64,000 nt of DNA. Origin: Escherichia coli. Its GTDB lineage: Bacteria; Pseudomonadota; Gammaproteobacteria; Enterobacterales; Enterobacteriaceae. The DNA is taken from NCBI RefSeq assembly GCF_003334335.1, contig NZ_QOWQ01000012.1; one strand, written 5' to 3'. Below are positions 33,663 through 49,027 of this stretch, piece by piece; the stretch's first letter is position 1; each line of letters begins with the position of its first letter. Under the pieces are notes generated by a model. The model ran no database searches, was not told where the DNA came from, and saw only the letters and a list, made by a program, of their open reading frames with translations. The translations under genes and the position numbers were made by a program.

Positions 33663-36017
33663 ATGAATCCTGAGCGTTCTGAACGCATTGAAATCCCCGT
33701 ATTGCCGCTGCGCGATGTGGTGGTTTATCCGCACATGGTCATCCCCTTATTTGTCGGGCGGGAAAAATCTATCCGTTGTCTGGAAGCGGCGATGGACCAT
33801 GATAAAAAAATTATGCTGGTCGCGCAGAAAGAAGCTTCAACGGATGAGCCGGGTGTAAACGATCTTTTCACCGTCGGGACCGTGGCCTCTATATTGCAGA
33901 TGCTGAAACTGCCTGACGGCACCGTCAAAGTGCTGGTCGAGGGGTTACAGCGCGCGCGTATTTCTGCGCTCTCTGACAATGGCGAACACTTTTCTGCGAA
34001 GGCGGAGTATCTGGAGTCGCCGACCATTGATGAGCGGGAACAGGAAGTGCTGGTGCGTACTGCAATCAGCCAGTTCGAAGGCTACATCAAGCTGAACAAA
34101 AAAATCCCACCAGAAGTGCTGACGTCGCTGAATAGCATCGACGATCCGGCGCGTCTGGCGGATACCATTGCTGCACATATGCCGCTGAAACTGGCTGACA
34201 AACAGTCTGTTCTGGAGATGTCCGACGTTAACGAACGTCTGGAATATCTGATGGCAATGATGGAATCGGAAATCGATCTGCTGCAGGTTGAGAAACGCAT
34301 TCGCAACCGCGTTAAAAAGCAGATGGAGAAATCCCAGCGTGAGTACTATCTGAACGAGCAAATGAAAGCTATTCAGAAAGAACTCGGTGAAATGGACGAC
34401 GCGCCGGACGAAAACGAAGCCCTGAAGCGCAAAATCGACGCGGCGAAGATGCCGAAAGAGGCAAAAGAGAAAGCGGAAGCAGAGTTGCAGAAGCTGAAAA
34501 TGATGTCTCCGATGTCGGCAGAAGCGACCGTAGTGCGTGGTTATATCGACTGGATGGTACAGGTGCCGTGGAATGCGCGTAGCAAGGTCAAAAAAGACCT
34601 GCGTCAGGCGCAGGAAATCCTTGATACCGACCATTATGGTCTGGAGCGCGTGAAAGATCGAATCCTTGAGTATCTTGCGGTTCAAAGCCGTGTCAACAAA
34701 ATCAAGGGACCGATCCTCTGCCTGGTAGGGCCGCCGGGGGTAGGTAAAACCTCTCTTGGTCAGTCCATTGCCAAAGCCACCGGGCGTAAATATGTCCGTA
34801 TGGCGCTGGGCGGCGTGCGTGATGAAGCGGAAATCCGTGGTCACCGCCGTACTTACATCGGTTCTATGCCGGGTAAACTGATCCAGAAAATGGCGAAAGT
34901 GGGCGTGAAAAACCCGCTGTTCCTGCTCGATGAGATCGACAAAATGTCTTCTGACATGCGTGGCGATCCGGCCTCTGCACTGCTTGAAGTGCTGGATCCA
35001 GAGCAGAACGTAGCGTTCAGCGACCACTACCTGGAAGTGGATTACGATCTCAGCGACGTGATGTTTGTCGCGACGTCGAACTCCATGAACATTCCGGCAC
35101 CGCTGCTGGATCGTATGGAAGTGATTCGCCTCTCCGGTTATACCGAAGATGAAAAACTGAACATCGCCAAACGTCACCTGCTGCCGAAGCAGATTGAACG
35201 TAATGCACTGAAAAAAGGTGAGCTGACCATCGACGATAGCGCCATTATCGGCATTATTCGTTACTACACCCGTGAGGCGGGCGTGCGTGGTCTGGAGCGT
35301 GAAATCTCCAAACTGTGTCGCAAAGCGGTTAAGCAGTTACTGCTCGATAAGTCATTAAAACATATCGAAATTAACGGCGATAACCTGCATGACTATCTCG
35401 GTGTTCAGCGTTTCGACTATGGTCGCGCGGATAACGAAAACCGTGTCGGTCAGGTAACCGGTCTGGCGTGGACGGAAGTGGGCGGTGACTTGCTGACCAT
35501 TGAAACCGCATGTGTTCCGGGTAAAGGCAAACTGACCTATACCGGTTCGCTCGGCGAAGTGATGCAGGAGTCCATTCAGGCGGCGTTAACGGTGGTTCGT
35601 GCGCGTGCGGAAAAACTGGGGATCAACCCTGATTTTTACGAAAAACGTGACATCCACGTCCACGTACCGGAAGGTGCGACGCCGAAAGATGGTCCGAGTG
35701 CCGGTATTGCTATGTGCACCGCGCTGGTTTCTTGCCTGACCGGTAACCCGGTTCGTGCCGATGTGGCAATGACCGGTGAGATCACTCTGCGTGGTCAGGT
35801 ACTGCCGATCGGTGGTTTGAAAGAAAAACTCCTGGCAGCGCATCGCGGCGGGATTAAAACAGTGCTAATTCCGTTCGAAAATAAACGCGATCTGGAAGAG
35901 ATTCCTGACAACGTAATTGCCGATCTGGACATTCATCCTGTGAAGCGCATTGAGGAAGTTCTGACTCTGGCGCTGCAAAATGAACCGTCTGGTATGCAGG
36001 TTGTGACTGCAAAATAG
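33663..36017 (+). CDS. lon: ATP-dependent Lon protease
   Basis: Internal ATG at 33663 gives 784 aa starting [26 protein letters not shown]; Walker A GPPGVGKT; catalytic Ser in PKDGPSAG. Confidence 0.97.
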
Positions 36018-43645: not shown

Positions 43646-47192
<3,547 letters not shown>

Positions 47193-47236
47193 ATAGCGCA
47201 ATATTTCATCGTTGGTGCAAAAATGTAACGCACTGT

Positions 47237-47251
47237 GCACTGTCATAGTGC
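47237..47251 (+). promoter_or_regulatory. candidate NtrC binding site upstream of glnK; may also act as the mdlB terminator hairpin
   Basis: GCAC-tgtcata-GTGC (GCAC-N7-GTGC, as in the NtrC consensus TGCACCnnnnnTGGTGCA) about 60 bp upstream of the sigma54 element; followed by GTTTTCATTTTC. Confidence 0.4.
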
Positions 47252-47304
47252 GTTTTCATTTTCAAACTTCTTAACTTCCTGCTCTCTTTCTCGTTTTTCA
47301 TTTC

Positions 47305-47320
47305 TGGCACACCGCTTGCA
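47305..47320 (+). promoter_or_regulatory. sigma54 (-24/-12) promoter of glnK-amtB
   Basis: TGGCACaccgcTTGCA, matching the sigma54 consensus TGGCAC-N5-TTGCA, about 50 bp upstream of the glnK start. Confidence 0.8.
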
Positions 47321-47372
47321 ATACCTTCTTCGTGTAGCAGAACCATTACCGAATTCTGACCGGAGGGGATCT

Positions 47373-47711
47373 ATGAAGCTGGTGACCGTGATAATCAAAC
47401 CATTCAAGCTGGAAGACGTTCGTGAAGCGTTATCTTCCATTGGTATTCAGGGCCTGACCGTCACCGAAGTGAAAGGTTTCGGGCGTCAGAAAGGGCATGC
47501 CGAGCTGTACCGGGGGGCGGAATACAGCGTCAATTTCCTGCCAAAAGTAAAAATTGATGTGGCGATTGCTGATGACCAACTCGATGAAGTGATCGATATC
47601 GTCAGTAAGGCGGCTTACACCGGAAAAATTGGCGACGGCAAAATCTTCGTCGCTGAATTGCAACGCGTCATTCGTATTCGTACCGGCGAAGCCGACGAAG
47701 CGGCGCTGTAA
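47373..47711 (+). CDS. glnK: nitrogen regulatory protein PII-2
   Basis: Internal ATG at 47373 gives 112 aa starting MKLVTVIIKPFKLEDVREAL; T-loop GRQKGHAELYRGAEYSV with the uridylylation Tyr; RBS GGAGGGG. Confidence 0.96.
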   Translation: MKLVTVIIKPFKLEDVREALSSIGIQGLTVTEVKGFGRQKGHAELYRGAEYSVNFLPKVKIDVAIADDQLDEVIDIVSKAAYTGKIGDGKIFVAELQRVIRIRTGEADEAAL

Positions 47712-47740
47712 TCTCTGGCACACAGCAACAGGAACGAAAA

Positions 47741-49027
47741 ATGAAGATAGCGACGATAAAAACTGGGCTTGCTTCACTGGCGATGCTTCCGGGACTGGTA
47801 ATGGCTGCACCTGCGGTGGCCGATAAAGCCGACAATGCGTTTATGATGATTTGTACTGCGCTGGTGCTGTTTATGACTATTCCGGGGATTGCCCTGTTTT
47901 ACGGTGGGTTGATTCGCGGCAAAAACGTGCTGTCGATGCTGACGCAGGTGACGGTGACATTTGCACTGGTCTGTATTCTCTGGGTGGTTTACGGTTACTC
48001 GCTGGCGTTTGGTGAGGGCAACAACTTCTTCGGCAACATTAACTGGTTGATGCTGAAAAACATCGAACTGACGGCGGTGATGGGCAGCATTTATCAGTAT
48101 ATCCACGTGGCGTTTCAGGGATCGTTTGCCTGCATTACCGTCGGCTTGATAGTTGGGGCGCTGGCGGAACGAATCCGCTTCTCAGCTGTGTTGATTTTCG
48201 TGGTGGTATGGCTGACGCTCTCTTACATTCCGATTGCGCATATGGTGTGGGGCGGTGGTTTGCTGGCTTCTCACGGTGCGCTGGATTTCGCGGGTGGCAC
48301 CGTGGTGCACATTAACGCCGCAATCGCCGGTCTGGTGGGCGCGTATCTGATAGGAAAACGCGTGGGCTTCGGTAAAGAGGCGTTTAAACCGCACAACCTG
48401 CCGATGGTCTTCACCGGGACTGCCATTCTCTATATCGGTTGGTTTGGCTTTAACGCCGGGTCAGCGGGCACGGCGAATGAAATCGCGGCACTGGCATTTG
48501 TGAATACTGTGGTCGCAACGGCGGCGGCAATTCTTGGCTGGATCTTCGGTGAATGGGCGCTGCGTGGTAAGCCTTCACTGCTGGGGGCGTGTTCTGGCGC
48601 GATTGCCGGTCTGGTCGGCGTGACGCCAGCCTGCGGCTACATTGGGGTTGGCGGCGCGTTGATTATCGGCGTGGTAGCTGGTCTGGCGGGCTTGTGGGGC
48701 GTTACCATGCTCAAACGCTTGCTGCGGGTGGATGATCCCTGCGATGTCTTCGGTGTGCACGGCGTTTGTGGCATTGTCGGCTGTATCATGACCGGGATTT
48801 TTGCCGCCAGCTCGCTGGGCGGCGTGGGCTTCGCTGAAGGTGTGACGATGGGCCATCAGTTGCTGGTACAGCTGGAAAGCATCGCCATTACGATCGTCTG
48901 GTCCGGTGTTGTGGCATTTATCGGCTACAAATTGGCGGATCTGACGGTTGGTCTGCGTGTACCGGAAGAGCAGGAGCGAGAAGGGCTGGATGTCAACAGC
49001 CACGGCGAGAATGCCTATAACGCGTAA
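47741..49027 (+). CDS. amtB: ammonium channel AmtB
   Basis: 428 aa; signal peptide, 11 TM helices, conserved pore His residues; follows glnK by 29 nt. Confidence 0.97.
   Translation: MKIATIKTGLASLAMLPGLVMAAPAVADKADNAFMMICTALVLFMTIPGIALFYGGLIRGKNVLSMLTQVTVTFALVCILWVVYGYSLAFGEGNNFFGNINWLMLKNIELTAVMGSIYQYIHVAFQGSFACITVGLIVGALAERIRFSAVLIFVVVWLTLSYIPIAHMVWGGGLLASHGALDFAGGTVVHINAAIAGLVGAYLIGKRVGFGKEAFKPHNLPMVFTGTAILYIGWFGFNAGSAGTANEIAALAFVNTVVATAAAILGWIFGEWALRGKPSLLGACSGAIAGLVGVTPACGYIGVGGALIIGVVAGLAGLWGVTMLKRLLRVDDPCDVFGVHGVCGIVGCIMTGIFAASSLGGVGFAEGVTMGHQLLVQLESIAITIVWSGVVAFIGYKLADLTVGLRVPEEQEREGLDVNSHGENAYNA

Follow-up and report, generated by a model that had tools for sequence, protein, structure and literature searches.

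In Escherichia coli, glnK is silent without NtrC despite the co-directional operon mdlAB, whose 3' end lies only 180 bp upstream, which raises the question whether the spacer between mdlB and glnK serves solely to activate the one operon or also to end the other. The spacer occupies positions 47193-47372 of a 64,000-nt stretch of contig NZ_QOWQ01000012.1 (assembly GCF_003334335.1), here called the window, and reaches from the first base after the mdlB stop codon to the last base before the glnK ATG; an earlier interpretation of the letters by themselves, here called the sequence-only reading, had set exactly these limits, and direct reading upheld them. It had also proposed a sigma54 promoter and an upstream dyad that could be an NtrC site, the mdlAB terminator, or both. 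We are confident that the spacer is best explained by a sigma54 promoter, a two-site NtrC enhancer, an inferred mdlAB terminator and an anti-Shine-Dalgarno (anti-SD) insulator. It is the characterised control region of the glnK-amtB operon, with nothing new in promoter or enhancer, and the only detail that is possibly undescribed is an enhancer that doubles as the mdlAB terminator. On balance we lean towards the view that in Escherichia, Citrobacter, Enterobacter, Salmonella and their relatives about 40 bp bind NtrC as DNA and terminate mdlAB as RNA, that the stem of the terminator pairs half-sites of two NtrC boxes, and that this merged element replaced a separate mdlB terminator still present in Serratia, Hafnia and Yersinia.

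Between positions 46700 and 47900 the window matches E. coli K-12 MG1655 at 100% identity, and the RefSeq labels there are mdlB, glnK and amtB, and a window position equals the NC_000913.3 position minus 425,225. For comparison we collected the mdlB-glnK spacers of 40 Enterobacterales loci (at least 15 from a contig search and 25 via exact-protein look-ups), which comprise 35 distinct sequences.

The sigma54 promoter glnKp lies on the + strand at 47305..47320 (TGGCAC-N5-TTGCA, TGGCACACCGCTTGCA). Its GG (47306-47307) and GC (47318-47319) doublets are exactly 10 bp apart in the TGGCAC-N5-TTGCW context by which it belongs to this promoter class, and the exact motif occurs as a single copy in the 64-kb window when both strands are scanned. 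In every Enterobacterales locus examined, a sigma54-like -24/-12 element precedes the glnK ATG by 59-104 nt, and a scan of the spacer for sigma70 promoters returned zero sites. The promoter was reportedly characterised by van Heeswijk in 1996 and by Atkinson et al. in 2002, and it is said to be listed in EcoCyc and RegulonDB. In chromatin immunoprecipitation sequencing (ChIP-seq) sigma54 gave the intergenic peak OS03 with the motif CTGGCACACCGCTTGCA, centred at 471761 in U00096.2, with its distance to the glnK start listed as 42, and marked as the known EcoCyc promoter of glnK (Bonocora et al.). This centre is window position 47312 and falls on the same bases as TGGCAC-N5-TTGCA. Genomic SELEX (gSELEX) likewise gave an RpoN peak with the same motif in the mdlB/glnK spacer (Shimada et al.). 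Counting 12 from the C of the -12 GC (47319) puts +1 at about 47331, in agreement with the published distance, and predicts a glnK 5' untranslated region at 47331..47372 (+) with the Shine-Dalgarno (SD) sequence GGAGGGG at 47362-47368. The element that the sequence-only reading had recognised is thus the published glnKp, in motif as well as in predicted start, and is textbook; compared with the known sigma54/NtrC-dependent promoter of glnK-amtB, it is the same locus without any difference in promoter or enhancer.

Activation of glnKp depends on the dyad further upstream. GCAC-N7-GTGC at 47237-47251, followed by G and then by TTTTCATTTTC, forms the core of a strong 17-bp NtrC site, site 1, at 47236..47252 (unstranded; TGCACTGTCATAGTGCG), which is centred at -87 and agrees with 11 of the 14 specified positions of the NtrC consensus TGCACCAnnnTGGTGCA (PMC8743547). 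The coordinates given earlier for the dyad were correct, but a second, weaker site had been overlooked: site 2, at 47216..47232 (unstranded; TGCAAAAATGTAACGCA), is centred at about -107, matches 10 of 14 consensus positions by direct reading and starts exactly 20 bp ahead of site 1. Judged by their sequence, both would form the two-site NtrC enhancer of glnKp, and with centres at -87 and -107 they lie on the same helix face within 70-150 bp upstream of the promoter. A footprint of NtrC on 47236-47252 was reportedly obtained by Atkinson et al. in 2002.

The element is conserved. Every one of the 35 distinct spacers has a single perfect GCAC-N7-GTGC, and the pattern of site 2, TGCA...ACGC, recurs in the same columns at the fixed 20-bp offset from Escherichia to Yersinia, Serratia, Rahnella and Acerihabitans. 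Of the 180 spacer positions, 31 distinguish E. coli from E. albertii, and just 2 of these fall within the 39-bp element 47216-47254. Motif counts alone were tried as a measure of the dyad's significance and rejected: the window holds 2 exact copies of GCAC-N7-GTGC against 1.1 expected from base composition, and 4 matches to TGCAC-N7-GTGCA with at most one mismatch against 4.06 expected. Since these counts are near expectation, the significance of the dyad rests on its context and conservation. The other exact copy, at 33919-33933 (about 459144 in NC_000913.3 by offset), is probably a chance match.

Published experiments place NtrC at this locus. A gSELEX peak of NtrC lies within the mdlB/glnK spacer (Shimada et al.), an NtrC ChIP-seq peak bin at 471741-471821 was assigned to glnK-amtB, and a strain deleted for glnG showed no readily detectable glnK mRNA (Brown et al. 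2014); transcription from glnKp has been described as exclusively dependent on NtrC activation. The ChIP-seq, gSELEX and glnG deletion data have locus resolution, and the ChIP-seq bin (window 47292-47372) leaves the dyad uncovered, its centre being shifted from that of the enhancer by about 98 bp towards the promoter. This offset counts against placing NtrC on the dyad and would favour a terminator without any enhancer, with the dyad ending mdlB transcription and NtrC acting from another site. However, the glnHPQ bin of the same study likewise sits about 91 bp promoter-ward of the well-known NtrC sites of glnHp2; since the offset at glnH is similar, we read it as systematic, which suggests that either the published coordinates are shifted or the looped complex was captured. 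Moreover, motif searches of the spacer retrieved the dyad as its only consensus-like NtrC site, GCAC-N7-GTGC is conserved without a T-run in Yersinia, Serratia, Rahnella and Photorhabdus, and the dyad is helically phased with the promoter, all of which leaves a terminator without enhancer function with next to no credibility. The NtrC site suspected earlier at the dyad is thereby borne out by conservation in 35 of 35 spacers, by phasing, and by the ChIP-seq and gSELEX peaks on the spacer.

The phasing was derived from the distance between the dyad centre and the -12 C, which falls into six classes among the 35 distinct spacers (75, 85, 96, 105-106, 117-119 and 128-131 bp) with steps of 9.5-12.5 bp. 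The best period is 10.9 bp (Rayleigh R 0.91; P ~0.012, with six uniform distances passed through the same period scan as the null). Between enhancer and promoter lies a looping spacer at 47264..47304 (unstranded; C/T-rich on the + strand), and no site with at most two mismatches to the consensus of integration host factor (IHF) was found between the two elements. Such a pattern would be expected of a short, protein-free loop with the enhancer facing the promoter; a loop this short requires the enhancer to sit on the correct helix face. The natural steps of about 10.9 bp offer a comparative illustration of how a short IHF-free sigma54 loop depends on the face of the helix. On the transcribed strand, positions 47253-47304 contain 14 C and 2 G in 52 nt, a rut-like composition that could recruit Rho to untranslated read-through RNA and that is not conserved in other genera.

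The glnK enhancer resembles that of glnAp2, where tandem 17-bp sites of the TGCACC-N5-GGTGCA type about 100 bp upstream of a sigma54 promoter likewise act by looping. The glnAp2 sites are centred at -108 and -140; those of glnK are 20 instead of 32 bp apart, are nearer to the promoter (-87 and -107), and one of them is weak. A further difference leads to the second function of the spacer: the NtrC sites of glnAp2, like those of glnHp2, have no T-tail and reach terminator scores of -27 or lower, unlike the sites of glnK. At glnA there is nothing to terminate, because the upstream gene bipA is divergent.

RNA transcribed through the glnK enhancer is predicted to form a hairpin at 47227..47254 (+), the putative intrinsic terminator of mdlAB, with an 11-bp stem including one G.U pair and a 6-nt loop (47238-47243). 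It starts 35 nt past the mdlB stop codon on the same strand. The 5' arm, AACGCACUGUG (47227-47237), joins the right half of site 2 to the 3-nt inter-site gap and the first two bases of site 1, and the 3' arm, CAUAGUGCGUU (47244-47254), is made of the centre and right half of site 1 and two T. With -14.4 kcal/mol (z = -3.9) the hairpin was more stable than all of 200 shuffled sequences, and it also appeared in a terminator scan. A T-tract at 47253..47263 (+; TTTTCATTTTC) would provide the U-tail, and the tail that follows the hairpin reads UUUUCAUUUUC. The sequence-only reading had described a short hairpin followed by a T-rich run; both are indeed there, but the 4-bp stem of the dyad does not stand, since the stem has 11 bp and spans two sites. 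A hairpin of site 1 alone was rejected as terminator stem (-6.4 kcal/mol, z = -1.8, no informative covariation) and the 11-bp stem preferred. Also rejected was a fold of the minus strand in the same region, which is weaker (-14.2 versus -18.2 kcal/mol for a 51-nt piece) and has no convergent gene in need of a terminator.

In its G+C-containing stem of 9-11 bp, 6-nt loop and immediate U-rich tract the hairpin is like the canonical intrinsic terminators of enterobacteria. It differs from them in that the stem consists of transcription-factor half-sites, the U-tract of K-12 is interrupted and Term-seq tables list no 3' end after mdlB. We infer that the hairpin probably terminates a substantial fraction of mdlAB transcripts in vivo in E. 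coli.

Comparison across the family bears most directly on this proposal. In an alignment of the stem from 16 sequences of Enterobacteriaceae and Erwinia, the T at each of positions 47253-47256 is invariant (16/16), matching the NtrC core in conservation. Within the 11-bp stem 83.5% of alignment cells are paired, a value that none of 500 shuffles reached. The pair 47234-47247 is U-A in 4 sequences and C-G in 9, and position 47234 sits in the inter-site gap, where no obvious constraint by NtrC applies. In Klebsiella sp. BIGb0407 a 1-nt insertion in both arms results in a longer stem (-17.8 kcal/mol). Hairpins that end at site 1 have -10 to -18 kcal/mol where a T-run follows and -6 to -10 kcal/mol where it does not (Mann-Whitney P = 0.0007).

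The distribution of separate terminators points in the same direction. The element at site 1, with terminator scores of about 0 to 36, is the sole terminator-like feature of the spacer in most Escherichia, Citrobacter, Enterobacter, Superficieibacter, Klebsiella sp., S. enterica and Erwinia rhapontici. In Serratia (6/6), Hafnia (3/3) and Y. artesiana, a separate canonical G+C-rich terminator directly follows the mdlB stop, and the NtrC site has no good tail. Counted by lineages, a separate terminator is present in 1 of 10 with the site terminator versus 5 of 8 without it (Fisher P = 0.043). Klebsiella also has a separate terminator, just upstream of the -24 element. In these loci (about positions 604-648 of each) a strong hairpin, CGGGCCGATTCACGGCCCG, is followed by the T-tail TTTTCATTTT, which runs straight into the -24 TGGCA, and the Klebsiella terminator abuts the promoter instead of overlapping the enhancer. 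In Salmonella site 2 is not recognisable (GGGGCGAAATCTCATCC), and the hairpin consists of nothing more than the perfect palindrome of site 1, ATGCACC/GGTGCAT, with TTTTTCTTTT behind it; not every member of the family therefore has the long stem of Escherichia, Citrobacter and Enterobacter. Folding energy, the invariant T-run, one compensatory pair and this distribution together speak for the terminator that had been suspected in the dyad.

Several observations weigh against a terminator role. The Term-seq tables of Adams et al. (2021), where a 3' end after mdlB was looked for as the earlier interpretation had called for, list no + strand 3' end between 470398 (mdlA) and 476561 (ffs), a negative of low power because mdlAB is weakly expressed. 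None of the papers searched describes a terminator in the mdlB-glnK spacer, and RefSeq has zero annotated features within it. The tail of K-12 is interrupted (TTTTCATTTT) and borderline (T score 3.83, d score 0.1; the formula, of the d'Aubenton-Carafa type, served for ranking alone). The covariation comes down to essentially one pair, perhaps a single evolutionary event, and related sequences can exceed shuffles in pairing without any structure. Weak versions of the hairpin are found in C. koseri (-6.6 kcal/mol) and S. bongori, and six spacers have no terminator-like element at all, from which it follows that a terminator after mdlB is not universally required. As for the tail, those of the relatives have T5-T8 and d scores of 19-36, and some E. 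coli strains (NZ_AP022221.1) carry TG for CA at 47257-47258, giving the tail TTTTTGTTTT as in E. albertii, which would be a better U-tract than that of K-12. In a published list, 'mdlA-mdlB' is given as an operon (Dar and Sorek 2018 PLoS Genet), but the list appears to hold filtered pre-defined operons, not mapped ends.

The missing 3' end, the borderline K-12 tail and the six spacers would all suit an enhancer that does nothing else, with the hairpin as a by-product of adjacent palindromic sites, the T-run acting in DNA as a flexible or bent A/T tract that aids the loop, and mdlAB ending by Rho or running on at a low level. No informative covariation was seen in the palindrome of site 1 taken by itself, the C-rich, G-poor spacer is compatible with loading of Rho, and with no IHF-like site present, intrinsic DNA properties could matter for the loop. 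Nevertheless, the T-run occurs in all classes of enhancer-promoter distance between 75 and 131 bp, so that loop length does not explain it; at nearly the same distances Serratia and Yersinia lack it (129-130 bp) and three Enterobacter species and Erwinia keep it (128-131 bp). It is missing where a separate terminator follows mdlB, and it is missing from the enhancers of glnAp2 and glnHp2. In addition, 47247 covaries with a position in the inter-site gap, and Klebsiella sp. BIGb0407 has matching insertions in both arms. We consider an enhancer without terminator function possible, but doubtful.

The hairpin might also be mainly a 3' stabiliser or processing stop of mdlAB mRNA, which blocks 3'-to-5' exonucleases after Rho-dependent termination further downstream and is not itself the site of release. 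A stable stem followed by a possible rut site in the C-rich stretch would fit, and 3' ends that Term-seq finds at hairpins are often of such origin (discussed in PMC6061677). But a protective hairpin does not need a T-run, and an invariant one directly follows the stem; the C-rich composition, in turn, is not conserved in other genera that keep hairpin and T-run. We regard this role as improbable, and continue with the merged enhancer and terminator.

For the merged element we propose the following sequence of events, of which binding of sigma54, occupancy of the spacer by NtrC, the NtrC dependence of glnK mRNA and the anti-SD insulator come from the work of others. RNA polymerase with sigma54 would wait as a closed complex at 47305-47320, ready to start near 47331. 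When nitrogen is limiting, phosphorylated NtrC would bind the strong site (-87) and the weak site (-107), oligomerise, loop over the short IHF-free spacer and spend ATP on opening the promoter. In RNA that leaves mdlB, the right half of site 2 together with the gap would pair with the centre and right half of site 1 to form the 11-bp hairpin, which with UUUUCAUUUUC may act as a Rho-independent mdlAB terminator, probably only partly efficient in K-12. On transcripts that escape, translation of glnK would be blocked by the CT-rich anti-SD element at 47324-47331. Enhancer and promoter, terminator and insulator together may thus ensure that expression of glnK is strictly dependent on NtrC.

The insulator was described by Levy et al. 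(bioRxiv 10.1101/086108), who found that a 50-bp glnKp core silences a downstream reporter transcribed from upstream and traced this silencing to a CT-rich stretch of 7 nt, centred at -4, which pairs with the SD sequence. In the native locus the CT-rich anti-SD motif, CCTTCTTC, is at 47324..47331 (+); because all of it but the last base precedes +1, it is transcribed in full by read-through alone. In folds of the read-through RNA, GGAGGGG (47362-47368) pairs with CCUUCUUC (47324-47331) with a probability of 0.8-1.0. RNA initiated by sigma54 at 47331 lacks the motif, and its SD is occluded to a lesser degree (mean paired probability 0.54). Our locus agrees with the insulator of Levy, Amit et al. 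in the promoter concerned, in the protection of glnK and in the pairing of the native SD with the CT motif at -4. Their insulator acts on translation and within the 50-bp core promoter; the hairpin would act on transcription, about 70-100 bp further upstream and outside their constructs. The spacer therefore seems to carry two layers against upstream-driven expression of glnK, a putative terminator and the published translational insulator.

The genes on either side are those of K-12. The mdlB reading frame (45297..47192, +) closes with TGA at 47190-47192, and RefSeq ends mdlB at 472417 of NC_000913.3, which is window 47192; this stop is the 3' end of the co-directional mdlAB operon. The ATG of glnK is at 47373-47375 (47373 equals 472598 in NC_000913.3), and its coding sequence at 47373..47711 (+), labelled glnK in RefSeq, has 112 codons plus stop; its translation matched PII/GlnK proteins at 100% identity. 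A 158-aa reading frame (47235-47711) would open at an in-frame GTG inside NtrC site 1, at 47235, and many database 'GlnK' entries (158 aa; others 141-193 aa) appear over-extended at the N-terminus like a call from this GTG. The spacer itself was found in 5424 of 5426 complete E. coli genomes, where it carries no annotation, and in an Rfam scan of 46500-48000 (E <= 1) it was empty, the sole match being a chance snoRNA inside mdlB.

Promoter and NtrC control of glnK are textbook, and their confirmation mainly shows that the motifs had been read soundly. The overlap of enhancer and terminator, if true, would be a compact case of one sequence selected twice, for binding of a protein on DNA and for a hairpin in RNA. 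The silence of glnK in the absence of NtrC, despite a co-directional operon 180 bp upstream, would be explained by this overlap, working alongside the published anti-SD insulator, and under nitrogen starvation bound phosphorylated NtrC and the terminator hairpin would be two independent blocks to read-through. If so, mutations in the enhancer may also alter read-through, and glnK 'UAS parts' reused in synthetic biology would carry a hidden terminator. In the annotation of operons, mdlAB and glnK-amtB would then stand as separate units.

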